Shown: positions 10,370-42,272, numbered from the stretch's first letter. The stretch: 64,000 nt of DNA from Verrucomicrobiota bacterium (GCA_043742955.1 JAYTXL010000027.1:2745-66744); one strand, 5' to 3'. Numbers and translations: made by a program. Notes: generated by a model from the letters alone, not told the origin.

Positions 10370-10459
10370 AACGTGGCTGAAATCTTTTGTATGAAAGGGT
10401 GGAAGACGATATGATCCGCTCAACCTGCATCCTGACTTTTCAACCCGGAACCCGCGGGC

Positions 10460-14801: not shown

Positions 14802-14802
14802 A

Positions 14803-15420: not shown

Positions 15421-15430
15421 AGGTTTTGAT

Positions 15431-18621: not shown

Positions 18622-18656
18622 GATCAAGCCCCAGCCGAAGTTAATCAAATTTGCCT

Positions 18657-19061
18657 ATGGATAAAAAGACCCTGGATCAACTCGTGAGCCAATTGGAGAA
18701 CTTCGTTGAGTGCTGGAAGCAGTTCAACAACTACGTGGCCATGGCGCGGACGAAGAAATTCACGCAGGACGATGAAATTCAGTTTCTGGAAATCAAGAGC
18801 GTGATTATCCAGGAGTTGGAAATGATTATTGGGGCCATTGAACAGGGCGGCCCCAACAAGGATGAAATTCACGCGCTCATTTGCGCCGCGCCGTCCATTC
18901 GCTACGTGAGCGAGCTTCAGGAGGGTTCGGTGCGTGCCATCGAGACGAACTGGCACAAAGTTTTTCTCGGCATCCAGGCGTTGGTGGGCCAGCTCAAGGT
19001 CGCCCAAAAAAATGCCGCCGGAGAGTCGATCTGGAGTTCCATGTTCGGCCGGAAGAAGTAG
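18657..19061 (+). CDS. Hypothetical helical protein (134 aa)
   Basis: ORF 18651..19061, with the first ATG at 18657 (MDKKTLDQLVSQLENFVECWKQF...). It is on the same strand as, and close to, the preceding genes. I recognise no motif. Confidence 0.5.
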   Translation: MDKKTLDQLVSQLENFVECWKQFNNYVAMARTKKFTQDDEIQFLEIKSVIIQELEMIIGAIEQGGPNKDEIHALICAAPSIRYVSELQEGSVRAIETNWHKVFLGIQALVGQLKVAQKNAAGESIWSSMFGRKK

Positions 19062-19123
19062 GCCCGGGTCCGCTCCGCGGGCGAAGGTTCTGCGGCGCGC
19101 GACCCGGCTGGTATGCGTCGTCT

Positions 19124-19543
19124 TTAGGGTGGGGCTTGCTTCGTGTAGATGCTCAACGACTTGATTTGTGCCGCTTGGGCCGCGTCACGCACTTCCAACA
19201 ACTTTCCCACGGGCGCATCCTTGTCCGCCCGGATCGCCAGCGTGAGTTTGGGGTTTTTGACGGAGCGCGCCGTCAGTTCACGCTGCAATTTATCCGCCGT
19301 GATGGGTACAGAATCCAAATATATATATGGCGACTGCTTGTTAATCGTCACTTGAATGGTGACGTTGTCACTGGCGCCGGCCTTCGGCGCCTGTTTGGAT
19401 TCCGGCAGCGCGATCTTCACTGCGGGGGATTGCTTGAAAGTGGTGGTTACCATCAGGAAAATCAACACGACGATCAGCACATCGATGAGCGACACGATGA
19501 TGACCGCGGGCGGATGCCGCCGTTTGCGGGTCGCGAATTGCAT
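19124..19543 (-). CDS. exbD: ExbD/TolR biopolymer transport protein
   Basis: 139 aa. RRHPPAVIIVSLIDVLIVVLIFLMV is the typical single N-terminal TM segment. The gene sits 2 nt downstream of exbB. Confidence 0.85.
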   Translation of the reverse strand: MQFATRKRRHPPAVIIVSLIDVLIVVLIFLMVTTTFKQSPAVKIALPESKQAPKAGASDNVTIQVTINKQSPYIYLDSVPITADKLQRELTARSVKNPKLTLAIRADKDAPVGKLLEVRDAAQAAQIKSLSIYTKQAPP

Positions 19544-25898: not shown

Positions 25899-26008
25899 CG
25901 GCTTCATTTCTGAGCGTTGCTTATACTTGAGCGCGCATCTTGACGCCTCTGTGTTGCAACCGCTAGCGTCGCTTGTGGTTTTCTTAACAAAGAAAGATTT
26001 TGGCACCG

Positions 26009-26398
26009 ATGCCCGTTGATACGTCAGCCCAATCCAGCCCCTACTTCTTCCTGACCGTGTTCCTGGGAGTGGCGCTGCTCTTTCCGCTTGTGCCGCTGGG
26101 GCTGGCCCGGCTCTGGGCGCGGATTTATTCGCCGCAGAAAACCGGCGATCAAAAGAACGCCACGTACGAGTGCGGCTTGGAATCCAAAGGGGATGGCTCG
26201 GTTCAATTCCAGTCGCACTATTATCTCTACGCCATCATCTTTCTGATTTTCGACGTCGAGGTGATTTTTCTGCTGCCCTTTGCGGTCGCCTTCTCGGGTC
26301 TGCCGGTGGGAGCATTTCTAGCGATCCTGATATTTTTGTTCCTGCTGGTCGAAGGATTGGCCTGGGCCTGGCTGAAGGGAGTGCTCACATGGAAATGA
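26009..26398 (+). CDS. nuoA: NADH-quinone oxidoreductase subunit A
   Basis: Three-TM protein of ~130 aa carrying YECG (ATYECGLES), the NuoA/ND3 hallmark. The ATG is at 26009 (the track start at 26000 is TTG). Confidence 0.9.
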
Positions 26399-26432
26399 AG
26401 TACACCGGCCAGCCTGGCCCAACGCGCCGCCA

Positions 26433-27059
26433 ATGGACTGTGACATGGACGAGGGATTAAAAAACGAATTGAGCAAGCAAGGCGTGTTCACCACGACCTT
26501 GGAGGACTTGTACAACTGGGGGCGTAAGAATTCTGTCTGGCCGCTGTCATTCGGGTTGGCGTGCTGCGCGATTGAGATGATTGCCGCGAGCATGGCGCGC
26601 TTTGACCTCGCCCGCTTTGGCGCGGAAGTGTTCCGGCCGTCACCGCGCCAGGCGGACCTGATGATTGTGGCCGGCACGGTGACCAAGAAAATGGCGCCGC
26701 AAGTCGTGCGCCTCTACAATCAGATGCCCGAGCCAAAATATGTAATCGCGATGGGCGCGTGTGCGATTTCCGGCGGCCCGTTCAAGCAGGGTTACAACGT
26801 GCTCAAAGGGATCGACCGTTTTATTCCGGTGGATGTGCATATTCCGGGCTGCCCCCCCCGCCCGGAGGCGCTGATCCACGCGTTCATGACGCTACAAAAA
26901 AAAATCGATTCGCAAAAACTCACCGGCCCGAGCCGCCCGCGCCATCTGGACGCCGCGGCTCCGAGCGAATTTCCCGTGCCGGTTTTCGGGGAGCATGACT
27001 TGCTTCCGCCCAGCAATCCCAATCTATGGAGGCCGACCAATGTGGTGCGGAGCGCATGA
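26433..27059 (+). CDS. nuoB: NADH-quinone oxidoreductase subunit B
   Basis: [21 protein letters not shown] and GCPPRPE provide the N2 cluster ligands. There is a ~45-aa C-terminal extension. Confidence 0.95.
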
Positions 27060-27165
27060 AATGGCCCTGGCTGATAGCCGCCCGCCTTCAGGTTGTGAGG
27101 CTGGGCGCGGGAATCCTCCGCGACTGACGCAAGCTAAAGCAGGCGGCTACAGCTGACGCTGGCCA

Positions 27166-27813
27166 ATGAAAATTGCGATGGAATTGCTCGAACAAATCAA
27201 AGCCCGCCTTGAAGCCGCCGTTCCCGGTGCGGCTCTTGAGGTGGTTCCGAATGACAGCCCGTCCGCGCAGCGGTCCTTGCTCGTGGGCCCCGCACACGCC
27301 GTGGCGATCGCAAAATGCCTGCGCGATGATCCGCAGCTTCTTTTGGACTACTGTTCCAACGTGACGGGGGTCGATTGGCCTGAAATGGAACTCACTGAAA
27401 AGGTGAAGGTCAAGCAGGTAGTGGAGGGGGTGGAGAAGGAAGTTGAGGAAGTCAGGAAGAAGATTCGTCCCGGTGTTTTGGAAGTGGTTTATCACCTGTA
27501 TTCGATGACCTTGAAGCACGGTCCGGTCATCATCCGGATGCGGACGGTTAACCGGACCGACCAGGTTCAACTGCCCTCCCTCACCCCCGTCTGGCGCAGT
27601 TGCGATTTTCAGGAGCGCGAGATTTTTGACTTGTATGGAATTCATTTTGAGGGGCATCCGGATCTGCGCCGCATTCTCATGTGGGACGGGTTCCTAGACC
27701 ATCCCATGCGCAAGGATTATGTCGCGCCGGACGACTATGAATACGAACCGACCCCGCACGATGAAGTTCTGGAGCGTGTGAAAGCCCGGCCGGCGGCGGA
27801 GGCGAAGCGATGA
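27166..27813 (+). CDS. nuoC: NADH-quinone oxidoreductase subunit C
   Basis: The end of the protein, [14 protein letters not shown] ([26 protein letters not shown]), is typical of NuoC/30-kDa subunits. A charged insertion is present ([22 protein letters not shown]). Confidence 0.9.
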
Positions 27814-28988
27814 TCACTTCGGTTGAATCCCCCGCCCAATCCAATTACGAGATCGTGCCGAAGAGCGCGCCGGACGGGACAATCCTGGCCGGCGAGTTGC
27901 TCGAAGTCGCCATGGGACCACAGCACCCCTCCACCCACGGCGTGTTCCGCATGGATGTGGTGCTCGACGGAGAGACGGTCGTCAAGCTCAAGCCGGTTTT
28001 TGGCTACCTCCACCGCAACCACGAAAAGATTGCCGAGGGCACGAGCTATCTTGGCTCCATGCCCTATACCGACCGGCTCGACTATTTTTGCTCGATGTCC
28101 AACAACTGGGCCTATGCCCTCAGCGTGGAAAAGCTGGCGGGCCTGGCCGTGCCCGAGCGCGCGGAATACATCCGCGTGATCACGGCGGAACTGACGCGCC
28201 TGATGAACCACGCCTGTCTCATCGGCTTCCTGATGCAGGACATGGGGGCCTCGGGCACGCCCCTCATGTATGCCTTCCGCGAGCGCGAGAAGATTCTCGA
28301 CCTGTTCGAGTCGCTGAGCGGCTCGCGCATGATGTGTAATTATATGCGCTTCGGCGGTTGTCGTTGCGATTTGCCGGAAGGGTGGCTCACGCAGGCCCAT
28401 AAGGTCGTGGATGCCTTCCCGCGATTCAATGACGAGTTCGAGCGGTTGCTCGCGGACAACGAAATCCTGATGGCGCGGACGCAAGGCGTGGGCGGAGTAT
28501 CGCGTGAACTTGCCATCAGCGCCGGTCTCACCGGTCCGATGCTGCGGGCGGCGGGAGTGGATTACGACCTGCGCAAGGTGGACCAATACGGCATTTACGA
28601 CCGCTTCCAATTCCGGGTGCCCCTCGGGGATCATGGCGACACGTACGACCGGTATATGCTCCGCGTGCTCGAGATGCGCGAGAGCGTGGTAATTCTTCAG
28701 CAGGCGCTCAAGGGGATCCCCGCCGGGCCGGTCATCGACCCCAAGGCCAAGCTGCGCGGCTTTCGTCCGAAAGCGGGTGAAGCCTACGGCCGGATCGAAT
28801 CACCAAAGGGCGAGCTGGGGTTCTACCTCATTAGCGATGGTTCGCCGAACCCGTATCGTTATCGGGTGCGACCGCCCAGCTTGATTAATCTGACCGTGCT
28901 GGAGGACATGTGTCTTGGCCGCCCCATCGCGGACGTCGTCATCATTCTGGGCAGTGTGGACATTGTGCTGGGCGAGGTGGACCGATGA
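27810..28988 (+). CDS. nuoD: NADH-quinone oxidoreductase subunit D
   Basis: [13 protein letters not shown] and the C-terminal DIVLGEVDR. The gene has a 4-nt overlap with nuoC. Confidence 0.95.
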
Positions 28989-29064
28989 GCGACACGGATT
29001 CCACAGATTTGCACGAATTGAATTCCGAATTCGTGTCGCTTCGTGTAATTCGTGTCTGATTTTT

Positions 29065-29748
29065 ATGCTCGGCACTGGCATTCTCAAAGGCATGGCGGAA
29101 ACGGCGCGCAACTTCGTCGGCAGTTACACCGACGCGGAGCGGCTCACGACCGTCGAGTATCCCGAGGAGCGCCTCGCACCGAAGGAGGCCGCGCGCAATT
29201 TCCCCTTCCTCGTGTTTGACACCGAAGATCCGCAGGCCGGACTGCGGTGTGTTGCGTGTCAGATTTGCGAGAAGGAATGCCCGCCCAAATGCATTTATAT
29301 TGTCAAGAGCAAGGACAAGAAGGCTGATTTTGTAGGCAAACCGCAGTTCTATCCAGCGACGTTCGACATTGATGTCTCCGTCTGCATGAGCTGCCAGATC
29401 TGCGTGGAAGTCTGTCCGTTTGAGGCCATCAAGATGGACACCGAGTTTGAGCTGAGCAACTCCGACCGTTTTGACGCGTTGCTGTTGCGCAAGGAACACC
29501 TCGCGAAGCCCAACAGTTACTACCGGAAAATCCACCCCACGGAAGCCGCGGAAGTGGACGCGCGGCTGGCCGGTGACAAGGCGAAGGCCGAGGCGAAATC
29601 CCGGGCAGACGCGGACGCGAAAGCCAAGGCCGCGTTGGCCGCGAAGGCAGCCGTTTTGGCAACCCCCGCGCCTGCTCAAACTCCGGCCGCCCCCCCCCCT
29701 GACGCATGCAGTTCATCTGGGATTTCCTTAACGCATTGGTCGGCATGA
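29065..29748 (+). CDS. nuoI: NADH-quinone oxidoreductase subunit I (2x[4Fe-4S]) with Ala/Lys/Pro-rich C-terminal tail
   Basis: CVACQICEKECP and CMSCQICVEVCP. The ATG at 29065 (MLGTGILKGMAETARNF) is the plausible start. The gene directly follows nuoD, with no nuoEFG in between. Confidence 0.9.
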   Translation: MLGTGILKGMAETARNFVGSYTDAERLTTVEYPEERLAPKEAARNFPFLVFDTEDPQAGLRCVACQICEKECPPKCIYIVKSKDKKADFVGKPQFYPATFDIDVSVCMSCQICVEVCPFEAIKMDTEFELSNSDRFDALLLRKEHLAKPNSYYRKIHPTEAAEVDARLAGDKAKAEAKSRADADAKAKAALAAKAAVLATPAPAQTPAAPPPDACSSSGISLTHWSA

Positions 29749-30941
29749 TCGGGAAGGTGCTGGGCGAACAGCCTGACCCGAAAGCGCAGTTCCTGGTGTT
29801 CTTCCCTGAGGCCATTCAGCCCGTTGTTTCCGCGCTGCTCTCGATCGCGCCGATATTGGCGGTGTTCCCCCTGCTGTTTGCGCTTACCACCGTGGTGGAG
29901 CGCAAGGGGCTCGCCCGTATTCAAAATCGGCTGGGCCCGAACCGGGTTGGTCTGCCTTGGACGAAGCTGCGGTTGTTTGGCTTTGGTCAGTTCATCGCAG
30001 ACGGCATCAAGTCGATTATCAAGGAGGACGTGGTGCCGCGCGCGGCGGATAAGGTGGTGCACTTCCTGGCGCCCATCGCGTTGCTGGTGCCGGTGCTAAT
30101 CGCCTACTCGGTGTTGCCGGTGGGGCGGACCCTGGTGGCGATCGATCTCGATGGCGGTTTGCTCTTTTTCTTTGCCGTCGGCGCGGGCACGGAGCTGGCC
30201 GTGTTTATGGCGGGCTGGTCGAGCCATAATAAGTACTCGCTGCTCGGAGCCATGCGCGGCATTGCGCAAATGATCAGCTACGAAATGCCGCTCATCCTTT
30301 CAACCATCGGCGTGGTCATGGTGGTCGGCTCCCTGTCCCTGCCCAAAATCGTCGAGGCGCAGGGCTTTTTCGGGGGTTGGTTGCCGCATTGGCACGTCTT
30401 TACGCCCTGGGGTTTTGCGGGCTTTATTTTGTTTCTGATTGCCGCCACCGCGGAGTCAAACCGTTCGCCCTTTGATTTGCCGGAAGCGGAGTCGGAAATC
30501 ATTGCCGGTTATTTCGTGGAATATTCCGGTTTCAAGTTCGCCCTCTTTTTCCTGGGGGAATATCTGGGGCTTTTTGCCATCAGCGGCATCGCCATCACGC
30601 TGTTCCTGGGCGGCTGGCAGGCGCCGGTGTCGTTCCTGACGTGGGTGCCGGGCTACCTCTGGTTCTTCGCGAAGCTGGTCACGCTGATTGTGCTGTTCAT
30701 CTGGGTGCGCGGAACGGTGCCCCGATTGCGCATGGATCAACTCATGAACCTCGCCTGGAAATTCATGCTCCCATTGGCGCTCATTAACATTCTGGCGGTC
30801 GGAATTTGGCGCTTCATGGAGGCGGGCGTGGGCCGCTGGATGGTGTGTACGCTCCTGATCGGCGGCGCCTATGTGGTTCTCGGCAGGACGCTGAGCAGCG
30901 GTCCCGGCCTCGGGAAAAGAATCTATCGCTATGCGGACTGA
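29706..30941 (+). CDS. nuoH: NADH-quinone oxidoreductase subunit H
   Basis: ERKGLARIQNRLGPNRVG and a polytopic NuoH/ND1 pattern (YSLLGAMRGIAQMISYE, AESNRSPFDLPEAESE). An alternative start at 29745 forms an ATGA overlap with the nuoI stop. Confidence 0.9.
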   Translation: MQFIWDFLNALVGMIGKVLGEQPDPKAQFLVFFPEAIQPVVSALLSIAPILAVFPLLFALTTVVERKGLARIQNRLGPNRVGLPWTKLRLFGFGQFIADGIKSIIKEDVVPRAADKVVHFLAPIALLVPVLIAYSVLPVGRTLVAIDLDGGLLFFFAVGAGTELAVFMAGWSSHNKYSLLGAMRGIAQMISYEMPLILSTIGVVMVVGSLSLPKIVEAQGFFGGWLPHWHVFTPWGFAGFILFLIAATAESNRSPFDLPEAESEIIAGYFVEYSGFKFALFFLGEYLGLFAISGIAITLFLGGWQAPVSFLTWVPGYLWFFAKLVTLIVLFIWVRGTVPRLRMDQLMNLAWKFMLPLALINILAVGIWRFMEAGVGRWMVCTLLIGGAYVVLGRTLSSGPGLGKRIYRYAD

Positions 30942-31458
30942 AATCATGACGTTCCTGAGCCTGCCTTTCATCGTCCTCGCGCTGCTTACGCTCAGCAGCG
31001 GCTTCGCCGCGATGCGCCTTCGTAACCTGGTGCATTGCGCTCTCTGCCTGGTGCTGACCTTCGCGGGGTTGGCGGGGCTTTACCTGCTGCTCGACGCGGA
31101 GTTCGTCGGCCTGGCGCAAATTCTCGTCTATGTCGGCGCGGTGGCGATACTGATAGTCTTCGCCATTTTGCTCACCCGTAATACCGAGCCGGACGCCAGC
31201 TCGTCCACGGTTTCCTCCTCGTGGCTGGCTGGATTGGCCGTGACCGTGCTGACGGCAGGCAGCATCATCTTCGCCATCATGACCAGTGCGCGAGTCGGAC
31301 GCGCCCTGCCGCCGAAGCCCGATGCCAGCGTCAAGCACATCGGCGAACTATTAATGACGCAATACATCCTGCCGCTCGAAGTCATCGCCCTGCTCCTGAC
31401 CGTGGCGATGATTGGCGCGGTCATCATCGCGATGAAAGATAAGGAATCGAAGCAATGA
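30931..31458 (+). CDS. nuoJ: NADH-quinone oxidoreductase subunit J
   Basis: 175-aa five-TM protein with the NuoJ/ND6-like pattern (VHCALCLVLTFAGLAGLYLLLDAEFVGLAQILVYVGAVAIL). Confidence 0.85.
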   Translation: MRTEIMTFLSLPFIVLALLTLSSGFAAMRLRNLVHCALCLVLTFAGLAGLYLLLDAEFVGLAQILVYVGAVAILIVFAILLTRNTEPDASSSTVSSSWLAGLAVTVLTAGSIIFAIMTSARVGRALPPKPDASVKHIGELLMTQYILPLEVIALLLTVAMIGAVIIAMKDKESKQ

Positions 31459-31472
31459 CAATCCTTTTCAAC

Positions 31473-31530
31473 GCGGAGCCGCGGAGCCGCGGAGAAAAAA
31501 AGCATTCTCTCCGCGCCTCCGCGCCTCTGC
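31473..31530 (+). repeat. Long imperfect hairpin (REP-like) in the nuoJ-nuoK spacer
   Basis: The arms gcggagccgcggagccgcggaga and tctccgcgcctccgcgcctctgc form a 23-bp stem with two C-C mismatches and one G-U pair. The loop is aaaaaagcattc (12 nt). The left arm is a 3x tandem gcggagc heptamer. No T-run follows. Confidence 0.6.
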
Positions 31531-31540
31531 GGTTCAACTT

Positions 31541-31852
31541 ATGACGCCACTAACCGGATATCTAATTGTGTCCGCGTTGCTCTTCGCCATCGGCCTCGCG
31601 GGCGCGCTCACGCGGCGAAACGCCATCCTCGTGCTCATCGGCATCGAACTCATGCTCAACGCGGCGAACCTGAACTTCATCGCTTTCTGGCGTTACGGCC
31701 CGAACCCGGAAGCGCTGACCGGCGTGATGTTTGTGCTTTTTTCCATCGGGATCGCCGCCGCCGAAGCCGCCGTTGGCCTGGCGCTCATCATCGCGATTTA
31801 CCGGCACTACCGGACGACGAACCTTGACCAGATTGATTCGATGAAAGGCTAA
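31541..31852 (+). CDS. nuoK: NADH-quinone oxidoreductase subunit K
   Basis: 103-aa three-TM protein with LIGIELMLNAANLNF and the conserved Glu residues of NuoK/ND4L. Confidence 0.9.
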   Translation: MTPLTGYLIVSALLFAIGLAGALTRRNAILVLIGIELMLNAANLNFIAFWRYGPNPEALTGVMFVLFSIGIAAAEAAVGLALIIAIYRHYRTTNLDQIDSMKG

Positions 31853-31855
31853 GAC

Positions 31856-33205
31856 ATGGAAGAAACCACCAAGTCGAACAATGTCCTGGCCAGTGCCGTC
31901 GTGCGTCAGCACTTCAGCACCATTCTTTGCGAGAACCTCATCACGGCCATTCGGACTTTTCCAGAGCCATCGCGCGTGGATTTGCAGTTCGGTTTGGATT
32001 GGCTTTTCACCAAGCGATTCAAAGCGCGTCTGGTCGGCGTTCATGCACTGTACGCGCATGAAACACTTACCTTCGCGCACCTGATCAGCGAGGGGAGCTA
32101 TCCCGTGCAGATTGGGCCGCTGCAGCACGTCGAAATGGACGTCGGCGAAGCGTTGCCCGCACGTTGTTTGAAACAAGGTCTCTGGCTTTCTGAGGAGAAC
32201 GGGGTTCTGTTCGCCGTCCTGCTCACGCCTGCCGAGCGCTTCGGACATTCGGCGGGAGTCCATGTCGAAGTCGCCATTCCACCTGGTGAAGCCGGCCTGG
32301 AATTATCCCGGGCATTCTTCGACGAGGTGGAGAAGCTCATCAACCAGACAGGTTCTTACCGGGGGAAGGTTATTTCTCTGGAAAAGACGCAGGGATTTGC
32401 CGGGTTTGGCGCCGGCGGCGTCAAGGTTCACCGACTCCGTTCGGTGCAGCGGGAAGAAGTCATCCTCCCGGAGAAAACGCTGCGCTTGCTCGAACGCAAC
32501 GTAAGCGATTTCATCCAGCAGCGCGACCGGCTCAAAAACTTGGGCATGGCGATTAAGAAGGGCCTGCTCTTTTACGGCCCGCCGGGCACTGGCAAGACTC
32601 ATACCATTCATTACCTGGCCGGCCAACTGCCAAACCACACCACATTGCTCATCACTGCCGAACAAGTTGGATTGCTGGATGAATACTTCCAGCTCGCGCG
32701 TTTTCTCCAGCCAGTAATGGTGGTCATCGAGGACGTGGATCTCATCGCGCGTGCCCGCGAGCAAATGCGGGACGCGTGCGAGGAGAGCATCCTCAACAAA
32801 TTACTCAATGAGATGGACGGCTTGCGCGAGGACGCGGCGATTCTGTTCGTGCTCACTACGAACCGGCCCGAACAGCTCGAAGCCGCCTTGGCATCGCGTC
32901 CGGGGCGCATTGACCAGGCCATCGAGTTTCCGCTGCCCGACGAGGAAGGCCGGGCCAAGCTCGTCCGGCTTTACGCGCGAGGCCTCTCCGTGCCCATCGA
33001 GGTTGTGGAAACCATCGTTACCAAGACCAAGAAGGCGAGTGCAGCGTTCATCAAAGAACTGATGCGCCGCGCCGCCCAATATTATCTCCAAGGCCAGGGC
33101 GAAGGGGCATTAAGCGCGGCGCATGTCGAGGCCGCCTTGGACGAAATGCTGTTCAGCGGCGGCAGCCTGAACCTGAAGCTGTTGGGGGGAGCTGTGGAGG
33201 AATGA
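31856..33205 (+). CDS. Classic-clade AAA+ ATPase (single AAA module, ~220-aa unique N-domain) embedded in the nuo operon
   Basis: Walker A LLFYGPPGTGKTH, Walker B VMVVIEDVDLI and a second region of homology TTNRPEQLEAALASRPGRID. It starts 3 nt after the nuoK stop, and its stop overlaps the nuoL ATG (ATGA). Confidence 0.9.
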   Translation: MEETTKSNNVLASAVVRQHFSTILCENLITAIRTFPEPSRVDLQFGLDWLFTKRFKARLVGVHALYAHETLTFAHLISEGSYPVQIGPLQHVEMDVGEALPARCLKQGLWLSEENGVLFAVLLTPAERFGHSAGVHVEVAIPPGEAGLELSRAFFDEVEKLINQTGSYRGKVISLEKTQGFAGFGAGGVKVHRLRSVQREEVILPEKTLRLLERNVSDFIQQRDRLKNLGMAIKKGLLFYGPPGTGKTHTIHYLAGQLPNHTTLLITAEQVGLLDEYFQLARFLQPVMVVIEDVDLIARAREQMRDACEESILNKLLNEMDGLREDAAILFVLTTNRPEQLEAALASRPGRIDQAIEFPLPDEEGRAKLVRLYARGLSVPIEVVETIVTKTKKASAAFIKELMRRAAQYYLQGQGEGALSAAHVEAALDEMLFSGGSLNLKLLGGAVEE

Positions 33206-35635
33206 CCTGGACTGCCCAAAATCTCTGGTTGATTCCGGTGCTGCCGCTGGTGGCGGCGGGGGTGAGTGCGTTGCTCAAGCAGCGACAGCGTGCGCTCGCA
33301 GCGACGCTGGCGATTGGCTCGATGGCCGTGGCGTTCCTGCTCGCGTGCGGTGCTTTTGTGCAAACACTCGGCGGGCATGTGGAACGGCAGGTTCATAACT
33401 TTTCGTGGTTTCAGTTCGGCGAGACCACACTCCAGCTCGGCTGGGTGCTCGATCCGCTCACGGCGGCGATGCTGGTGATGGTCACGTTCGTCGGCGCGCT
33501 CATCTTCATCTACAGCGTCGGTTACATGGCACACGACGAAAACTTCACGCGGTTCTTCTGTTTCCTTTCACTGTTTGCGGCGGCGATGCTCGGCCTGGTC
33601 ATCGCGAACACCCTGCTGCTGCTCTTCATGTGCTGGGAGTTGGTCGGCCTGGCGTCCTACCTGCTCATCGGCTTCTGGTATCACAAACCCAGCGCGGCGG
33701 CGGCGGCGAAAAAGGCGTTCATCACCACGCGTATCGGCGATATCGGTTTTTTCATCGGCATCCTGTGGCTCTACCATGAAACCGGCACGCTGTTGTTCTA
33801 CGACGGCGGCAATGGATGCCTCGAACAATCTGCCATCGTAAAGCTGGTTGCCCAGACGACCTTGGGCGGCATGGCGGTGAGCACGGCGATTGCGCTGCTG
33901 ATTTTCTGCGGCGCCATCGGCAAATCCGGCCAGGTGCCGTTGCAAGTGTGGTTGCCCGATGCGATGGAAGGTCCGACGCCGGTGAGTGCGCTGATCCATG
34001 CCGCGACGATGGTGGCGGCGGGGGTGTTTCTGGTGGCGCGCGTGTATCCGCTAATGGAAGCGGTTCCTGCGAATTCGAGGTTGGCACTTCCAAGTTCTCA
34101 AACTGAAATGGTCCGCCCTCACTCCGGCCCGCTCCCCCAGGAGAGGGAGTTAGCGGCAACGACTCCTGATGGCTTCAAACCCATAAAGCCATCAGCAGCA
34201 CAACCCGGCAGAACCGAAAGCAGTACCGGAGCGGACGCTGAACGAATCACCAGAACACAGGCCAATGTTCCCCCTCTCCCCGGGGGAGAGGGCCGGGGTG
34301 AGGGTGAGCATTCAACCCCTTCCACAACCGTTTCCACCGCCCGCCAGATCGTTACTTGGATCGGCGCGATTACGGCGATTTTCGCTGCGCTTATTGCCGT
34401 CGCACAGACCGACATCAAACGCATCCTCGCTTACTCCACCGTGTCGCAACTCGGCTTCATGTTCATCGGGCTCGGCACCGGCGGGCCGGCGGTGGGCATG
34501 TTTCACTTGCTCACGCACGCGTTCTTCAAGGCCCTGCTGTTTCTGGGCGCCGGTTCGGTGATTCATGGTTGCCATGAGGAACAGGACATCAGGCACATGG
34601 GCGGCTTGCGTCGGCTGATGCCGGTGACTTTCGCGACCTACGCCATCGGCATGATGGCATTATCGGGCTTCCCGCTGGTGTTTTCCGGTTTCTGGAGCAA
34701 GGACGAAATTCTCCACAGCGCCTGGCTGTGGGAACCGAGCAAATGGCCCTTTGTCCTCGCCGCCCTCGGCGCCCTGCTCACGGCATTCTACATGACGCGG
34801 CAGATGTATTATGTATTTTTTGGAAGCTCCCGGAGCGCGGCGGTCCCCAGCCGCAGCGCGCACGACGCACACAGCGGCTCTGAATCACACGTGACGCAGG
34901 GAACGTCAGCCCCTCTCCCCGGGGGGGAGGGAGAAATATTCGCTGCCCTCCGCGCATTCGGAAGCGTACTTGACCTCGCCCGGCGCTGCGGCTGGGGACA
35001 GCCGTGTTCCACACGAATCCCCGGCGGTGATGACCCTTCCGCTCGCCCTGCTGGCGGCTTGCGCCATTCTCATGAGTCTCTTCGGCACGCCGATCTGGCC
35101 ATGGTTTCACGATTACCTTTCCGGACATGAATCCCATTTCCGCCCGGCCATCGATCTGGGGGTGGCCCTGACGATGCTCTTTTCGGTCGCCCTGGTGGGC
35201 ACTGGGGTCGGACTGGGCTGGCGGCTGTATGGTCGTAAACCCCTCACGGATGCGGCGGCGCCGGATGCGCTCGAGCAACTGCAGCCTGCCGCTTTTGGGG
35301 TGCTGCGCGGAAAATTCTACATCGACGAGTTGTACGAAATATCGGTTATCCGTTTTCACGCCTGGTGTGCCCGTGGCTCGCGCTGGCTGGATGATACGAT
35401 TTGGAATGGGGTGGTGAACGCGCTTTCTGGGTGCGTCCTCGCGTTGTCATGGTTGAGCCGGTTCATCGATGAGTTGGTGGTCAACTTCGGCTTTGATGAA
35501 GCCTGCCGCCGGGTGCGTGACGGAGCGAGGCTCACCGCGCGATTGCAGGATGGCAAAGTGCAAAACTACCTGCGCGTGATCGGCCTGTCCCTGGCGATTC
35601 TGTTGCTGTTCCTGATCTGGGGGCGCGGCCAATAA
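33202..35635 (+). CDS. nuoL: NADH-quinone oxidoreductase subunit L, enlarged; reading frame broken once (+1) inside a repeat element
   Basis: ORF 33202..35130 carries the NuoL motifs WELVGLASYLLIGFWY and AGSVIHG. ORF 34970..35635 (frame +1) carries the remaining NuoL part, HESPAVMTLPLALLA...FYIDELY...QNYL. The total span of 2434 nt equals 3n+1. Deleting one G of the G7 run at 34921-34927 gives a continuous ~811-aa protein. Confidence 0.8.
34116..34308 (+). repeat. Inverted-repeat-flanked structured element (MITE/REP-like) inserted in frame in nuoL
   Basis: The left arm ccctcactccggcccgctcccccaggagaggga (34116-34148) is approximately the reverse complement of the right arm ccctctccccgggggagagggccggggtgaggg (about 34272-34304). 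The right arm contains the perfect palindrome ccctctcccc-g-ggggagaggg. An internal 10-bp hairpin is ctgatggctt-N10-aagccatcag. The element translates as ...PHSGPLPQERE...PPLPGGEGRGEGE... Confidence 0.6.
34843..34999 (+). repeat. Second inverted-repeat-flanked element in nuoL, coincident with the frame break
   Basis: gtccccagccgcagcgc (34843-34859) is the exact reverse complement of gcgctgcggctggggac (34983-34999), a 17-bp perfect inverted repeat 123 nt apart. The interior contains cccctctccccgggggggaggga, related to the palindrome of the first element. Confidence 0.6.
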
Positions 35636-35646
35636 TTTACCAGCTG

Positions 35647-37200
35647 ATGCATTCATTTCCCCTCCTCACCGCGCTGACGTTCACCCCGTTCTTGGGGGCG
35701 GCGTTGTTGATCGGCTTGGAGTCGCGACACAAGGCCCTGGCGCGCCGGCTGGCGTTGGGCTTTAGCTTGATTGCACTGCTGCTGGCGGGCCGGCTCTGGT
35801 TTGATTTCAATCCCGCCACCCAGGAGCTGCAATTTCTGGAGCGCCACGCCTGGATACCCACGCTCAACGTGGAGTATTTTGTCGCGCTCGACGGTTTGGG
35901 CCTGTTGATGGTTCTGCTGACGGCCGTGGTCGTGCCGATGGCCATGCTGGCGTCGTGGCGGATGGAGGAGAAGGTTCCCCTCTATTTTGCGCTCGTGCTC
36001 CTGCTGCAGGGCGGCCTGTTTGGCGCGTTCACGGCCCTGAACTTTTTCCATTGGTTCATCTATTGGGAGTTGAGTCTCGTGCCCGCGTTTTTCCTGATCA
36101 AGCTCTGGGGTGGTGGGCGGCGCAGTGCGGCGGCATTTCAGTTCTTTGTATATACCATGGTTGGCAGCGTCACGATGCTGCTCTCCTTCGTGGCGATCTA
36201 TCTGGCGACCGGGACGTTTGATTTCATCGAGCTGGCCGACCTGGGCCGCAGCGGCGGTCTGGCTTCGGCGCTGAACGTTAAGCTCTGGTTTGCCCTCACG
36301 CCGAACCAGCTCACCATGCTCATCTTTGGCGGGGTCTTCCTTGGTTTCGCCGTGAAGGTTCCGCTGTGGCCCTTTCACACTTGGCTGCCGGCGACTTACT
36401 CCGAGGCACCCACCGGCACGACCATGCTGCTGACGGGGCTCATGTCCAAGCTGGGAGTCTATGGCTTCCTGCGCATTCTCCTGCCGCTCTTTCCGGAACA
36501 GATGAGGCAGGTGCTCACGCCACTACTTTGGCTCGCCGTGGCCACCATCGTGTTTTCCGCATTTGCCGCCGTCGCCCAAACGGATCTGAAACGAACCCTC
36601 GCCTACTCGTCCATCAACCACCTCGGCTACTGTCTGCTCGGACTTTTCGCCGCCCTGCAAGTCACCCCGAACGAGCCGCGGTGGGCATTGGAGAAAGCGG
36701 CCGCCCTCAACGGAGTCCTGCTCCAAATGTTCAACCACGGTCTGACGGCCTCGGCGCTGTTTTGCTTCGTCGGCTTTCTGGAGCAGCGCGGCGGCGGGTT
36801 ACGCGGGTTGAATGATTTTGGTGGGCTCCGCAAAGTGGCCCCGGTGTTTTGCGGTTTGATGGGGATCGCGCTCTTCGCGTCCCTCGGCCTGCCCGGATTG
36901 AATGGTTTCATCGGCGAGTTCCTCATTTTTAAAGGAGCTTTCCCCCTCGCGCCGTGGGCGACGGCCGGGTCCGCCATCGGGCTGCTGGTGACGGCGATTT
37001 TCATCCTGACAATTTTGCAACGGGTATTTAACGGGCCGCTGAATGAAAAGTGGTCGCGTCTGCCGGACCTTACCGTGGCTGAGCGGCTGATCGTGGTGCC
37101 GGCGGTCGCCTTGATGCTGCTGCTCGGTATTTGTCCTCAGATGGTGATCGGGCTGGCCAATGCAACCGTGCTGCAGTGGGTGGAGCACTTGAAGTTTTAG
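35647..37200 (+). CDS. nuoM: NADH-quinone oxidoreductase subunit M (copy 1)
   Basis: 517 aa with the ND4-type pattern FIYWELSLVPAFFLIKLWGGGRRSAAAFQFFVYTMVGSVTMLL, plus HTWLPATYSEAPTGTTMLL. Confidence 0.9.
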   Translation: MHSFPLLTALTFTPFLGAALLIGLESRHKALARRLALGFSLIALLLAGRLWFDFNPATQELQFLERHAWIPTLNVEYFVALDGLGLLMVLLTAVVVPMAMLASWRMEEKVPLYFALVLLLQGGLFGAFTALNFFHWFIYWELSLVPAFFLIKLWGGGRRSAAAFQFFVYTMVGSVTMLLSFVAIYLATGTFDFIELADLGRSGGLASALNVKLWFALTPNQLTMLIFGGVFLGFAVKVPLWPFHTWLPATYSEAPTGTTMLLTGLMSKLGVYGFLRILLPLFPEQMRQVLTPLLWLAVATIVFSAFAAVAQTDLKRTLAYSSINHLGYCLLGLFAALQVTPNEPRWALEKAAALNGVLLQMFNHGLTASALFCFVGFLEQRGGGLRGLNDFGGLRKVAPVFCGLMGIALFASLGLPGLNGFIGEFLIFKGAFPLAPWATAGSAIGLLVTAIFILTILQRVFNGPLNEKWSRLPDLTVAERLIVVPAVALMLLLGICPQMVIGLANATVLQWVEHLKF

Positions 37201-37295
37201 CACTGAATGGACACGATTAAAGACGCAGTTAAATTGGCCCGCCGCGATGAATTTGTCAGAGTGACTGAAAATTATCGAACTCCCGCGTTCTGACC

Positions 37296-38822
37296 ATGCT
37301 TGCCTGGACCATATATCTCTCGTTTCTGGGTGTGTTCGCGCTGCTGCTGCTGCCCAGGGAAGAGGCGCGCATGGCGCGCGTGACGGCGCTGCTCAGCGCG
37401 TTGGCGGGCTTGGGCGTTTCCCTCGCCGCGATTCTGCAATACCAGCCTGGGTCGGGGATTGTCACGGTCGCCAAGGCTTCCTGGGTGGCGTCGCTCGGGA
37501 TCGAATATCACCTTGCCGCCGATGGCATCAGCCTCACGCTGGTGTTGCTCACGGGGATCGCTTCGGTGGTGGGAATTTTATTTTCGTGGAATGTCGAGCA
37601 TCGCGCCCGGGAGTTCTTTGCATTTTACCTCGCTCTCATCGGCGGTGTGTATGGGGTGTTCCTAAGTTTTGACCTGTTCCTGTTGTTCGTCTTCTACGAG
37701 CTGGCGATTATCCCGAAATATTTCCTCATCGCCATCTGGGGTTCGACAAACAAGGAATATGGAGCGATGAAGCTGGCACTCTATTCCTTTGTCGGGAGCG
37801 CCCTGGTGCTCATCGGTCTGGTGGCCGCGTACGTCGTCTCTGGAGCGCACACGTTCGATTTGCTTGAGCTGGCAAAATTTCCGTTTCCGGAGGGCTTTCA
37901 ATACTGGGCATTCCCGCTGGTGTTCATCGGATTCGCCATTCTCGCGGGCTTGTGGCCCTTTCACACCTGGGCACCCACGGGCCACGTGGCCGCGCCGACG
38001 GCCGCCTCGATGCTGCTGGCCGGCGTCGTGATGAAACTCGGCGCGTATGGCTGTCTGCGCGTGGCCATGACTCTGTTCCCACTGGGGTTGGCGGCCTGGC
38101 GCCAGGAGATCGCCATCCTGGCCGTCATTGGGATCGTGTATGGCGCGATGGTGGCGCTGGTGCAGAAGGATTTCAAATTTGTGATCGGCTATTCCAGTGT
38201 GAGTCACATGGGTTTTGTGCTGCTCGGTTTGATGACGATTAATGAAATCGGCCTAAGCGGTGCGGTGTTGCAGATGTTTTCCCATGGCATCATTGCCGGT
38301 TTGCTATTCGCCGTGGTGGGCCGGATGGTTTATGAGCGCACGCACACCCGCGATTTAAATGCACTGTCAGCCATGGACCTGGGCCACGCGCTGCCCTTTG
38401 CCGCCGGCACGTTCGTGCTCGCCAGTCTGGCGTCCATGGGGCTGCCCGGCTTCAGCGGCTTTGTGGCCGAATTGTCGATCCTCTACGGAGCCTGGCAGCT
38501 CTATCCCCAGCTCGCCTTGCTGGCTGGTGGGGGGATTGTCATCGGGGTTGCCTTCATGATGCGGACGATGGTGCGCGCCTTTTTCTCGGATGAAGGCCGG
38601 GCGGGGACCTCACCGGAACTACATTTGGCGCCGGCGCAAAATGAGCCCGCCGGCGGTGCGTCACCATTTGAAACGATTTCCGTTCCCGAGCGGATTGGTG
38701 CCGCGATCCTGCTGGGCACCACGCTGGTGATCGGGTTGCAGCCGCATTTGTTGCTGGATTTGATAATGCCCAGCTTTCAATCGCCACTGATGCAGGTGCT
38801 GGTGAAGGGAGGGAGGCCGTGA
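37296..38822 (+). CDS. Second NuoM/ND4-type antiporter-like subunit (copy 2)
   Basis: 508 aa. FVFYELAIIPKYFLIAIWGSTNKEYGAMKLALYSFVGSALVLI and HTWAPTGHVAAPTAASMLLAGVVMKLG fit NuoM better than NuoN. Confidence 0.85.
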   Translation: MLAWTIYLSFLGVFALLLLPREEARMARVTALLSALAGLGVSLAAILQYQPGSGIVTVAKASWVASLGIEYHLAADGISLTLVLLTGIASVVGILFSWNVEHRAREFFAFYLALIGGVYGVFLSFDLFLLFVFYELAIIPKYFLIAIWGSTNKEYGAMKLALYSFVGSALVLIGLVAAYVVSGAHTFDLLELAKFPFPEGFQYWAFPLVFIGFAILAGLWPFHTWAPTGHVAAPTAASMLLAGVVMKLGAYGCLRVAMTLFPLGLAAWRQEIAILAVIGIVYGAMVALVQKDFKFVIGYSSVSHMGFVLLGLMTINEIGLSGAVLQMFSHGIIAGLLFAVVGRMVYERTHTRDLNALSAMDLGHALPFAAGTFVLASLASMGLPGFSGFVAELSILYGAWQLYPQLALLAGGGIVIGVAFMMRTMVRAFFSDEGRAGTSPELHLAPAQNEPAGGASPFETISVPERIGAAILLGTTLVIGLQPHLLLDLIMPSFQSPLMQVLVKGGRP

Positions 38823-40306
38823 ACTACGGAGAAATTCTCAGACTCGCCGCGCCTGAAACGATCTTGGTTTTGACCGCTTTGATCGTGTTGGGGGTGGATT
38901 TGTGGCGGGCGCACTCGCAGCCGGTGCGCCTGCGGATGCATCTGGCCGTGGCCTTGGGGGTGCTCGGGTGTGTGGCCTCCTTCCTGTGGATGTTCTATGT
39001 TCCCGCGCACGAAAATATTCTCCACGGCATGCTGGTAGTTGACCCGTTGACGCTGCTGCTCAAGCAGGCCTTGCTCGTGTTGTCGGTGTTCACCCTGATT
39101 ATTTCCTTCGAGGCGGATTTCACCGAGCACGTGGGGGAGTATGTGGGGGTGTTGCTCCTGGCGACGGTGGGCATGATGTTTCTGGTCAGTGCGGAGGATA
39201 TCCTGATGATTTTTGTCGCACTCGAACTGACCAGCCTTTCCCTCTATATTCTGACGGCCTTCAACAAACGAAACATTCACTCCGCCGAAGCGGCATTGAA
39301 GTATTTTTTGATCGGGAGCATGTCGGCGGCGTTCACCCTCTACGGTCTGAGCCTGATATATGGCCTGTCCGGTTCGACCAATCTGGTTCAGATTGCCAGC
39401 CACTTGACCGGCCAGCGGACCGATCCATTGTGGTACGCAGCCATCGTGATGACGGTGATGGGCTTCGGCTTCAAGGTCGCCGCCGTGCCGTTTCATTTGT
39501 GGGCGCCGGACGCCTATCAGGGAGCCCCGACCCCCAGTGCCGCCTTCATCGCCTCCGGCTCGAAGGTTGCCAGCTTCTTTGTCTTTGCCAAAGTCATGAG
39601 CATCGGCTTCGCCGGAGCGGAAGGCAGTGGCGCGTGGCACGCCTATGTTGCCGGTTGGATGCCGGTGATCGCCGTCCTCGCGCTGCTCTCAATGGTGCTG
39701 GGCAATCTGGCGGCCATCATGCAGACCAGCGTGAAAAGGTTGCTTGCGTATTCTGCCATCGCCCACGCCGGCTATGCCTTGCTCGGCTTGCTCGCGAACA
39801 GCCGCGCCGGCCTGGCCGCCCTGATTTATTACATCATCACATACGCGCTGACGACCGTGGGTGCGTTCGGCGTCGTGGCGCTCGTGGAGGGAAGGGGAGG
39901 GGATGATCGATTGGCGGTGTTTGCCGGCCTTGGTCGCCGGTCGCCCGGACTCGCCTTCTGCTTCATGATATTTATTTTGTCGCTGGCGGGTATTCCACCG
40001 CTGGCGGGTTTTTTCGGAAAGTTTTATGTATTTGTCGCCGTGCTTAAGGGTGATGCGCCGCACCTCGGCCTTCTCTGGCTGGTGATCCTGGCCATCGCGA
40101 TGAGCGCGGTGTCGCTCTATTATTATCTGCAACTGCTCAAGCAGGTTTATGTCCATGAGGCCCCGGCCTCGGCGGCCCCGCTGCTCACTCCGTGGCTCGC
40201 CCGCCTGGCGATTGCCCTGTTGGCACTGGCCGTGCTCGTGCTGGGCTGCGCCCCGGATCTGCTTTTGCAAACGGTGATCTCCGCGGTCCATGCCGCAAGT
40301 TGGTAG
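38819..40306 (+). CDS. nuoN: NADH-quinone oxidoreductase subunit N
   Basis: 495 aa with the ND2-type pattern FVALELTSLSLYILTAFNKRNIHSAEAALKYFLIGSMSAAFTLYG. The gene has a 4-nt overlap with the preceding gene. Confidence 0.9.
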   Translation: MNYGEILRLAAPETILVLTALIVLGVDLWRAHSQPVRLRMHLAVALGVLGCVASFLWMFYVPAHENILHGMLVVDPLTLLLKQALLVLSVFTLIISFEADFTEHVGEYVGVLLLATVGMMFLVSAEDILMIFVALELTSLSLYILTAFNKRNIHSAEAALKYFLIGSMSAAFTLYGLSLIYGLSGSTNLVQIASHLTGQRTDPLWYAAIVMTVMGFGFKVAAVPFHLWAPDAYQGAPTPSAAFIASGSKVASFFVFAKVMSIGFAGAEGSGAWHAYVAGWMPVIAVLALLSMVLGNLAAIMQTSVKRLLAYSAIAHAGYALLGLLANSRAGLAALIYYIITYALTTVGAFGVVALVEGRGGDDRLAVFAGLGRRSPGLAFCFMIFILSLAGIPPLAGFFGKFYVFVAVLKGDAPHLGLLWLVILAIAMSAVSLYYYLQLLKQVYVHEAPASAAPLLTPWLARLAIALLALAVLVLGCAPDLLLQTVISAVHAASW

Positions 40307-40364: not shown

Positions 40365-42272
40365 TTGCGCGTGAAAAACCGAATGAACCTGAACCGCACC
40401 CGCTCATTTCTGGCGGCCACGTCCGTCATCCTCGCCCTCGCTGGCACGCCTGCCCCCGCCGCTTCGCCGACTCTGCCGGAGGGGGTGGTCAGCACTCAGG
40501 ATCCCAAGGATCAGCCGCCGTCGCCGTTGGACTCGTTGAAAAAGATCACGGTGCCGGAAGGTTTCAAGGTCACGCTCTTCGCGGGCGAACCGGACCTCAT
40601 GCAGCCGATCTCGTTTGACTTGGATGACCGCGGCCGCCTCTGGGTCGTGGAAAACTTTTCTTATCCGGATTTCAAAACCGAGAACAAGGACCGCATCATC
40701 ATTCTGACCGACCAGGATGGCGACGGACGGTTTGATGAGCGGAAAGTATTTTTGGAGAATGGCCGCCGGCTGACCAGCATTGTCAACGGCTTTGGTGGTG
40801 TCTGGGTGCTTTCTCCGCCGGAGCTGCTTTTCATTCCCGACGCGAATGGCGACGGCGTGCCCGACGGTCCGCCGGTGGTGCATCTGGATGGCTGGACGAC
40901 GAAAGCGTCGCACAACATGGTGAACGGGTTGATCTGGGGGCCGGACGGCTGGCTGTACGGGCGGCAGGGGATTCTCGTGCCCTCCCTGGTGGGCCAGCCA
41001 GGCACGCCCGAGCCGCAGCGAACCAGGGTGGGTTGCGGGGTCTGGCGTTATCATCCCACCCGCAAGATTTTTGAGATGGTGGCGGACGGCACGACGAACC
41101 CGTGGGGGATGGATTTTGACGAGCATGGCCAGGCGTTTATTTCCAACTGCGTCATCGCCCACCTGTGGCACGTGGTGCCGGGCGCCCATTGGCAGCGCAT
41201 GTTTGGTGAGGACTCAAATCCATTTTCCTACGGCTTGATGCCGGCGACGTCCGATCATTTTCACTGGGATACCCGGGAAAAGTGGAGTGATGTCCGCAAG
41301 CTGGGAGTCACGGACACCTCCAATCAGGCCGGCGGAGGTCATGCCCATGAGGGTGCGATGGTTTATTTAGGCGACAACTGGCCGGACCAATATCGCGGCA
41401 CGCTCATGATGGGCAACATCCATGGCAACCGCCTGCTCTACGACGTGCTGGAGCGAAAGGGTTCCGGTTACACGGCCCGTCACGGGAAACCGTTTTTGAT
41501 GGCCAACGATCCGTGGTTTCGCCCGATCACCATGGATTATGGCCCGGATGGCGGCGTGTTTGTCAGCGACTGGAGCGATCTCGGCGAGTGTCACGACAAC
41601 GACGGCGTGCATCGGACGAGCGGGCGGATTTATAAAATCACCTATGGCCAGCCCAAAGCGCTGGGTGATCTGAATCTGGCCCGGCTCAGCGATGCCGAGC
41701 TCGTCAAGTTGCAGCTGCACAAGAACGACTGGTATGTGCGGCATGCGCGCCGATTGCTCCAGGAACGTGCGGCGGCTGGAAAAATCAGCCCGGGAACAGC
41801 GGCGGCGTTGTTAAAAATCTTAAAGGACAATCCCGACGAGACGCGCAAGCTGCGCGCGCTATGGGCGCTGCACTCCGTGGGGCAGGCCGACGAGGGGCTG
41901 CTGTTGAAGCAACTCGACCAGAGGAGTGAACATGTCCGTTGGTGGGCGGTGCAGTTTCTGATGGAAGATAAGAAAGCATCACCCAAGGTGCTGGCCAAAT
42001 TTACGGAGCTGGCCCGCAACGATGCGTCGGCGCTCGTTCGGCTCGCTTTGTGTTCCGCGCTGCAGCGACTCCCGCTGACGGACCGCTGGGGGGTTGCGGA
42101 AGCCCTGGCCGCGCATGAAGAGGACGGCGCCGATGCGAACGTGCCGCTGATGCTGTGGTATGGCATTGAGCCGTTGGTGCCGGCTGATCGCACGCGAGCG
42201 ATTCAGTTCATGGCCAAGTGCAAGCTTCAAACCGTCCGCCAGTTCATCACTCGCCGATTGGCGGCGAATTGA
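40365..42272 (+). CDS. PVC-type 'membrane-bound dehydrogenase domain' protein with C-terminal HEAT-like repeats
   Basis: A signal peptide, then ITVPEGFKVTLFAGEPDLMQPISFDLDDRGRLWVVE (the beta-propeller glucose/sorbosone-dehydrogenase-like domain common in Planctomycetes and Verrucomicrobia). The C-terminus has HEAT-like helices (VRWWAVQFL..., ALVRLALCSALQRL). No CxxCH haem motif was seen. Confidence 0.7.
   Translation: MRVKNRMNLNRTRSFLAATSVILALAGTPAPAASPTLPEGVVSTQDPKDQPPSPLDSLKKITVPEGFKVTLFAGEPDLMQPISFDLDDRGRLWVVENFSYPDFKTENKDRIIILTDQDGDGRFDERKVFLENGRRLTSIVNGFGGVWVLSPPELLFIPDANGDGVPDGPPVVHLDGWTTKASHNMVNGLIWGPDGWLYGRQGILVPSLVGQPGTPEPQRTRVGCGVWRYHPTRKIFEMVADGTTNPWGMDFDEHGQAFISNCVIAHLWHVVPGAHWQRMFGEDSNPFSYGLMPATSDHFHWDTREKWSDVRKLGVTDTSNQAGGGHAHEGAMVYLGDNWPDQYRGTLMMGNIHGNRLLYDVLERKGSGYTARHGKPFLMANDPWFRPITMDYGPDGGVFVSDWSDLGECHDNDGVHRTSGRIYKITYGQPKALGDLNLARLSDAELVKLQLHKNDWYVRHARRLLQERAAAGKISPGTAAALLKILKDNPDETRKLRALWALHSVGQADEGLLLKQLDQRSEHVRWWAVQFLMEDKKASPKVLAKFTELARNDASALVRLALCSALQRLPLTDRWGVAEALAAHEEDGADANVPLMLWYGIEPLVPADRTRAIQFMAKCKLQTVRQFITRRLAAN

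Follow-up and report, generated by a model that had tools for sequence, protein, structure and literature searches.

A complex-I-like nuo operon of Verrucomicrobiota with two NuoM-type genes and an embedded AAA ATPase gene

What kind of enzyme is encoded by a nuo operon that carries two NuoM-type genes, contains no genes for the NADH-oxidising subunits and holds an AAA ATPase gene between nuoK and nuoL? The question is raised by a locus within a stretch of 64,000 nucleotides (nt) from a Verrucomicrobiota bacterium (GCA_043742955.1, JAYTXL010000027.1:2745-66744), referred to here as the window. We put at about 70% the probability that this locus is the nuo operon of a verrucomicrobial metagenome-assembled genome (MAG) encoding a complex-I-like enzyme of 12 subunits and of the 2M type. 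Complexes of this type are defined by a second NuoM together with a lengthened NuoL, in which the lateral helix (HL) carries an insertion of ~26 aa (PMC6606698, PMC9040806). The names of the homologues are those of Verrucomicrobiota, including Pedosphaera, 'subdivision 3' and Chthoniobacterales, and the window is therefore attributed to a verrucomicrobial MAG, in which it is part of a contig of 89,913 bp.

A listing of open reading frames (ORFs), combined with Pfam and NCBIfam scans, identified 13 co-directional and tightly packed genes on the + strand (26000-40306) in the order nuoA-B-C-D-I-H-J-K-AAA-L-M1-M2-N, with junctions within the operon ranging from -43 to +106 nt. An initial interpretation made from the DNA sequence alone (the sequence-only reading) had proposed this gene content, order and strand, with nuoD ending at 28988, nuoI following at 29065 and nuoI lying ahead of nuoH; the domain scans and coordinates bore this out. 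The genes are as follows.

26000-26398 (alternative ATG start 26009), + strand: nuoA; PF00507, 102.6 bits
26433-27059, + strand: nuoB; PF01058, and NF011394 at 367.5 bits
27166-27813, + strand: nuoC; PF00329, 124 bits
27810-28988, + strand: nuoD; PF00346, 307 bits
29065-29748, + strand: nuoI; Fer4_7, NuoI models at 77-78 bits (under their cutoffs), NuoI matches in the PDB
29706-30941, + strand: nuoH; PF00146, 360.9 bits
30931-31458, + strand: nuoJ; PF00499
31541-31852, + strand: nuoK; PF00420
31856-33205, + strand: AAA ATPase gene; PF00004
33202-35635, + strand: whole nuoL, in two frames; PF00662 and PF00361 on its 5' part
35647-37200, + strand: nuoM1; TIGR01972, 468.7 bits
37296-38822, + strand: nuoM2; TIGR01972, 443.8 bits
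38819-40306, + strand: nuoN; TIGR01770, 404.8 bits

The ORF of nuoI opens at 28915, and the ATG at 29065 gives a product of 227 aa, in line with its orthologues (204-228 aa). Its 3' end overlaps nuoH by 43 nt. The C-terminal tail of the protein, ~80 residues rich in Lys and Ala (about 150-227), has no counterpart in E. coli NuoI.

The assignment to the 2M type is carried by two observations, the first of which concerns the tandem genes upstream of nuoN. On the NuoM model TIGR01972 both products, M1 and M2, scored far above the NuoN and MrpD models; no NuoN model appeared among the top NCBIfam matches of M2, and MrpD models reached ~173 bits or less. At the position in transmembrane helix (TM) 12 both proteins have the NuoM-specific Glu, where NuoL and NuoN have Lys. 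The best PDB matches of M2 were all NuoM, ND4 or NdhD, with no solved 2M structure among them. Profile scores, the TM12 Glu and the structural matches thus agree that 37296-38822 encodes a NuoM-type subunit, as first proposed, rather than a NuoN- or Mrp-like one. M1 and M2 are 33.7% identical to each other and each ~36% identical to E. coli NuoM. Because of this low identity, and because each forms a separate, conserved orthologous series across related operons, the duplication is judged to be old.

The second observation is the length of the NuoL C-terminus. From the D of the FYIDELY motif to the end of the protein there are 103 residues in the window, 100-104 in ~110 orthologues and 72 in E. 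coli. When aligned with ten intact orthologues, E. coli NuoL showed 29 gap columns between FxDExY and the last TM, and in phmmer alignments the residues following DGxVN outnumbered those of T. elongatus NdhF1 by ~30 and those of Paracoccus NuoL by ~24. An HL extension of ~30 residues, first estimated from the sequence alone, is thus 29-31 residues by alignment, and it is constant across the ~110 orthologues. An AlphaFold (AF2) model of the C-terminal fragment (predicted local distance difference test, pLDDT, 70.7) contains helices at 88-92, 94-103 and 106-177 followed by the terminal TM, from which a lateral helix of ~90 residues is predicted (fragment 88-177; HL about 35267-35536).

Taken together, the second NuoM-type gene and the lengthened HL support membership of the 2M class, to which the sequence-only reading had assigned the operon. 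In the model that we propose, four antiporter-like subunits would be present, probably arranged in gene order L-M1-M2-N. The ~30 additional HL residues, equivalent to ~45 A of helix (1.5 A per residue), would reach across the extra subunit and clamp L-M1-M2-N together, and five protons would move per two electrons. What weighs against this reading is that both the proton stoichiometry and the electron donor are predicted from sequence, and further the distribution of the AAA gene, the state of nuoL, the 64 kb of genome in view and a residue lost from M2, each of which is considered below beside the alternative that it bears on.

The gene between nuoK and nuoL encodes a protein of 449 aa with one classical-clade AAA domain (PF00004, residues 237-360) and a predicted alpha/beta N-terminal domain of ~200 residues that had no Pfam match, including no detectable sequence match to BCS1_N. 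The Walker A motif reads GPPGTGKT and the Walker B motif VVIED (VVIEDVD), with E292-D293 invariant in 16 sequences; among classical AAA proteins, ED in place of DE in Walker B is an exception described for YjoB and Bcs1 (PMC9565160). When an AlphaFold model of the protein (pLDDT 72.9) was searched with Foldseek, the top PDB matches were YjoB (7W42, TM-score 0.55-0.61) and Bcs1, and only these two aligned over 425-475 columns, the alignments of FtsH, p97 and PAN covering the AAA domain only. No hydrophobic helix that would form an N-terminal membrane anchor was found in the sequence or by DSSP, and for this reason the protein is regarded as soluble and YjoB-like, not as an orthologue of Bcs1. 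Bcs1 is the mitochondrial translocase of the Rieske protein. The single classical AAA domain and the ED Walker B are shared with Bcs1 and YjoB (7W42), and the predicted model, N-terminal domain included, aligns with both over its full length. The missing anchor sets the protein apart from Bcs1; its family occurs in Verrucomicrobiota, Acidobacteriota, Melainabacteria and others, whereas YjoB is from Bacilli (B. subtilis). Judged by its predicted fold, the protein is a soluble Bcs1/YjoB-like ATPase. A role in a defence system was considered and rejected: PADLOC returned only generic AAA similarity to IetA (80 bits), and the NCBIfam model IteA scored far under its cutoff.

The AAA gene begins 3 nt after nuoK and overlaps nuoL at an ATGA. 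Among 80 species-level genome loci with a homologue, 11, all verrucomicrobial, have the gene between nuoK and nuoL, making 12 such operons with that of the window, and the K-AAA-L junction is found in operons of either layout, contiguous or split (ABCD(I)/HJK-AAA-LMMN). Neighbour-joining placed the embedded copies in a single clade, inside which two non-embedded sequences are nested; this points to entry at the nuoK-nuoL junction by a single capture. The ancestor of one verrucomicrobial clade would have captured the gene at this junction, and it would be co-translated with nuoL.

We see even odds that the AAA gene is only a passenger, a stand-alone chaperone gene that landed between nuoK and nuoL in operons whose junctions accept unrelated genes, and that it has no role in complex I. 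The distribution of the family agrees with this: its members are 56-78% identical across Verrucomicrobiota, Acidobacteriota, Melainabacteria, Planctomycetota and Gemmatimonadota, ~69 of the 80 homologues stand alone, no neighbour family recurs in more than 5 of those ~69 loci, and the embedded copies are not obviously diverged from the stand-alone ones. All five operons reached through M2 or NuoL homologues were found to lack the gene, and no remnants of it were detected in the AAA-less operons. One of the five belongs to the nearest relative, locus L208, in which the Nuo subunits are 82-95% identical and the same DUF7133 gene lies downstream; at its K-L junction there is instead a small Cys-rich, Zn-ribbon-like ORF of ~110 aa. 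Since the AAA gene is missing from L208 and from four further 2M operons, we regard it as dispensable for the complex. Further guest genes occur in orthologous 2M operons (L208, L085, L002 and the P0304 locus): HEAT_2 between C and D, PDDEXK_3 or two Band_7 genes between D and I, ORF6N between M1 and M2, and HicA after M1 (L208 3241-4062, 5262-5639 and 8651-9001; L085 1541-3494; L002 14781-15335). Set against passenger status are the recurrence of the same junction in 12 operons spanning both layouts, the monophyly of the embedded copies, and the ATGA overlap with the 3-nt gap, which imply long-term co-expression; in addition, the structurally closest characterised relative, Bcs1, is an assembly factor of a respiratory complex. 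For a chaperone or assembly role in complex I the odds are placed between somewhat short of even and even, about where those of a passenger lie. We describe the gene as long retained, translationally coupled and clade-specific, of uncertain relevance to the complex.

The state of nuoL raises a different alternative. The features of the gene and of its two repeat insertions are as follows.

33202-34925, + strand: 5' part of nuoL, frame 1, TM1-13 (translation, and alignment with 10 intact orthologues)
34107-34314, + strand: in-frame insertion in the NuoL TM8-TM9 loop, ~80-93 aa; DNA fold z = -7.26
34832-35010, + strand: imperfect palindromic insertion of ~179 nt in the NuoL TM13-TM14 loop, of 3n+1 length and holding the frameshift; DNA fold z = -4.85
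34895-35635, + strand: 3' part of nuoL, frame 2, with TM14, TM15, HL and TM16 (translation, and AF2 secondary structure)

The gene is not a single ORF. Frame 1 (33202-35130) covers TM1-13 and then runs out of frame to a stop at 35130, and the end of the protein, HESP...FYIDELY...QNYLRVIGL, lies in the next frame, open from 34895 to 35635, so that the frame switch falls near 34895-35010. The sequence-only reading had treated nuoL as one gene and drawn its motifs from both frames, overlooking the frameshift.

We consider it doubtful that the operon is a decaying pseudogene cluster in which a repeat disrupted nuoL, with respiration proceeding through an NADH dehydrogenase encoded elsewhere. The frameshift does fall within a palindromic insertion of 3n+1 length that is peculiar to this genome, the ~179-nt hairpin having been found at the TM13-TM14 site in none of the orthologues examined, and the 642-aa truncated product is the sole NuoL form on record for the contig; the copy of nuoL present here may thus be non-functional. 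A miscount in the homopolymer G7 was considered as the cause of the frameshift and is not a simple answer: an A-to-G substitution within the palindrome CCCCTCTCCCCGGGGGAGAGGG, which leaves the length as it was, accounts for the run. Against decay, the other 12 genes are intact and their catalytic residues conserved, hairpin repeats are error-prone in MAG assemblies, and many relatives tolerate in-frame repeat insertions in nuoL. The out-of-frame 3' part, moreover, reads through 247 codons without a stop, and its identity to P0243, an intact orthologue, is 82%; since the other genes are intact and this part is preserved, any inactivation would be recent. Exact look-ups for an independent assembly over the frameshift returned only the same NCBI contig and a Logan contig of 1.8 kb, which stops within the first 90 nuoL codons. 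Two explanations are considered for the interruption: a genuine disruption of recent date, or an error of assembly.

The in-frame insertion of the TM8-TM9 loop consists of two inverted arms of ~45 nt, resembling repetitive extragenic palindromes (REP-like; core CCCCTCTCCCCGGGGGAGAGGGCCGGGGTGAGGG), around an interior of ~120 nt, and is translated as '...RPHSGPLPQERE...PPLPGGEGRGEGE...'. Three copies of the ~45-nt unit are present in nuoL, two as the arms of this insertion and one in the second insertion, with none elsewhere in the window. A 34-mer of the unit recurs at unrelated loci across at least 120 metagenome contigs, and among 80 contigs fetched with the arm (L088-L167) none has the repeat in nuoL; the unit, seen also in L087 (4586-4604), is translated as PLPGGEGRGEGE or RPHPGPLPQERE. 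The interior is common only to other NuoL orthologues. In ~60% of the closest 120 NuoL orthologues the same loop carries insertions of 50-200 residues, all in intact ORFs and many resembling translated repeats. The TM8-TM9 and TM13-TM14 loops are both hot spots for such in-frame insertions (P0243-P0361), whose repeat-like peptides include LTPALSPxGGEG, ALTPALSLSERERENR, SPGRRDALPYV and KSEPPHVGSYE. Owing to the insertions, NuoL varies in length from 674 to 896 aa at a constant length of the lateral helix. No Rfam family matched the palindromic elements. Rickettsia palindromic elements insert in frame into protein genes, and the elements found here resemble them in being palindromic units within an essential-type ORF that are translated and tolerated in surface loops; they differ in belonging to another sequence family (core CCCCTCTCCCCGGGGGAGAGGG...) and in that one of the two copies here breaks the frame.

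From where would the complex take its electrons? The Q-module (NuoB, C, D and I) is complete and looks functional by its conserved residues. NuoB has all four N2-cluster cysteines (CC44-45, C110 and C140), NuoD has the QHPSTHG and RLDY motifs, which we take to hold the quinone-site His and Tyr (T. thermophilus Nqo4 numbering), and NuoI keeps two CxxCxxCxxxCP motifs (N6a/b); conservation of the quinone-site and N2 residues had been singled out as a check by the sequence-only reading. With E. coli NuoE, NuoF and NuoG (NC_000913.3) as queries, tblastn gave no match at E<=1e-3 in the window, nor in 11 related loci with 10-kb flanks on either side, and the three genes were not found in the Pfam tables of five further loci (L002, L085-L087 and L208). 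The operon thus lacks NuoEFG, as originally described, and an adjacent nuoEFG cluster, which would have contradicted that description, was not detected in the window. With no NuoEFG module to oxidise NADH, the complex most likely receives its electrons from a reduced carrier of the ferredoxin type, which would dock on NuoI/NuoD in the way known from cyanobacterial NDH-1. Such a low-potential carrier would provide a larger driving force, enough to cover the cost of a fifth proton for every two electrons.

It is distinctly unlikely that the complex is instead an ordinary NADH:quinone oxidoreductase whose NuoEFG, encoded at another locus, docks onto the core. Our view is limited to 64 kb of the genome and nuoEFG could lie elsewhere, and split nuo clusters do exist in the lineage, ABCDI being divergent from HJK...N in L002 and L010. 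The searches of the related loci speak against this alternative, and the lack of EFG is characteristic of a recognised class of complex I homologues, exemplified by cyanobacterial NDH-1; NuoE and NuoF are also lacking from Nitrospira 2M clade 3 (PMC6606698). The solved structure that NuoL matches best is cyanobacterial NdhF1 (435 bits, vs 308 for E. coli). Ferredoxin-docking subunits of the NdhS/V/O type were not seen in the window. In the Chthoniobacterales MAG locus L002, a 390-aa gene with FAD_binding_1 and NAD_binding_1 domains (18365-19537), ferredoxin-NADP-reductase-like, lies directly after nuoN; its product could be a candidate electron-input partner. Such a gene after nuoN was seen in L002 only, and in neither the window nor the other loci.

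The charged residues of the two NuoM-type subunits differ. M1 keeps the canonical Glu/Lys/Lys/Glu set. In M2 the TM7 Lys (K234 of E. coli NuoM) is replaced by Leu in 119 of 120 homologues (P0121-P0240), the TM7 motif FAVKxPxxPxHxW reading FAILAGLWPFHTW, and TM5 has an extra Lys six residues after the conserved Glu (YELAIIPKYF) in all nine orthologues examined (L002, L005, L006, L008-L011, L015 and the window). The TM7 Lys is regarded as essential in E. coli NuoM, and its loss from M2 counts against the main reading. The shifted Lys suggests a rewired charge pair, perhaps adapted to the M-M interface. That M1 and M2 are alternative subunits, incorporated one at a time to give two isoforms of a three-pump complex, would suit their low identity and the altered charges of M2, but it is very unlikely, as the HL region of NuoL is ~30 residues longer in all ~110 orthologues, which fits a permanently longer arm, and every complete operon seen keeps both M genes. 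A bolder proposal, which we think unlikely, has two parts. The AAA protein would be a dedicated AAA+ factor, the first in bacteria, for the assembly or quality control of a complex-I-type enzyme, and would assist in the folding or insertion of a Nuo subunit, with the long NuoL helix or an Fe-S subunit as possible targets; in parallel, the TM7 Leu and TM5 Lys of M2 would form a rewired proton path at the M-M interface.

The genes that neighbour the operon are housekeeping genes or typical of the Planctomycetes-Verrucomicrobia-Chlamydiae (PVC) group: sulfatases, superoxide dismutase (SOD), CobW, argG and a DUF7133-HEAT protein. The gene for the last, with DUF7133 and HEAT repeats (40365-42272), begins 58 nt downstream of nuoN on the same strand, has the same place in L208 (15769-17658), and may be co-transcribed with the nuo operon. 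A scan for promoters and terminators gave signals at chance level and was uninformative. Elsewhere in the window (8098-12103), an ABC ATPase gene is followed by three tandem paralogous ABC-2-type permease genes, of which the middle copy (9878-10369, 163 aa) consists of the 5' third only and is a partial duplication or a remnant. Two Roadblock/LC7-domain proteins, one of them fused to CDGSH iron-sulfur domains, are encoded at 14007-17137 (- strand); a response regulator with DUF4388 adjoins these proteins, and farther on (53737-62196) lies an ORF of 2819 aa with almost no Pfam matches.

How exceptional is the locus? The order A-B-C-D-I-H-J-K-L-M-M-N without EFG was found in every related operon retrieved (at least 15), some with ABCD(I) divergent from HJK...N, and for M2 as well as for NuoL, metagenomes from soil and freshwater contain close homologues by the thousand. 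The layout is ordinary for a large group of Verrucomicrobiota. The combination of features that the sequence-only reading had called unusual therefore divides: two NuoM genes without EFG are standard in this verrucomicrobial lineage, and it is the embedded AAA gene that is confined to a sub-clade. The 2M operon type was already known, reportedly from the description of 2M complex I by Chadwick, Hemp, Fischer and Orphan in 2018 (ISME J); what is new is that one sub-lineage retains a Bcs1/YjoB-like AAA gene at the nuoK-nuoL junction. The gene is not mentioned in two papers that cite Chadwick et al. 2018 (PMC6606698 and PMC9040806), and searches of the literature on Verrucomicrobia plus 2M complex I found nothing relevant.

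The 2M type is thus the standard nuo operon of a large and abundant group of soil and freshwater Verrucomicrobiota, including sulfatase-rich heterotrophs, and the idea of a fifth proton must make sense in these wider physiological settings. To our knowledge, 2M complexes are the only natural forms of complex I for which a different proton-to-electron ratio has been proposed, and no purification or structure of one has been reported. The Lys-to-Leu change of M2 is a natural variant of a residue regarded as essential. The conserved, translationally coupled AAA gene offers a starting point in the search for an assembly factor of complex-I-type enzymes in bacteria; should the gene prove to be a passenger, the locus would be one more ordinary example of a class already known.

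Among known systems, the closest are the 2M complexes such as Nitrospira CI_1, which likewise have a second NuoM beside the first and a longer HL (29-31 aa here vs ~26 reported). Like Nitrospira clade 3, the operon lacks NuoE and NuoF, and unlike it, it retains nuoH and has no enlarged NuoG (PMC6606698); its lineage is verrucomicrobial and its gene order A-B-C-D-I-H. With cyanobacterial and chloroplast NDH-1, which has 11 subunits and is ferredoxin-dependent, it shares the core A, B, C, D, H, I, J, K, L, M and N and the absence of an N-module, whereas it has an extra NuoM and a longer HL, and ferredoxin is only a predicted donor here. In 'Ca. Manganitrophus' Complex_I_3, which has five pumping subunits and an HL insertion of ~26 aa, two MrpD-like subunits replace NuoL (PMC9040806). 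There too the arm is extended by extra antiporter-like subunits with a matching HL insertion, whereas the verrucomicrobial operon encodes one true NuoL and four pumps in total.

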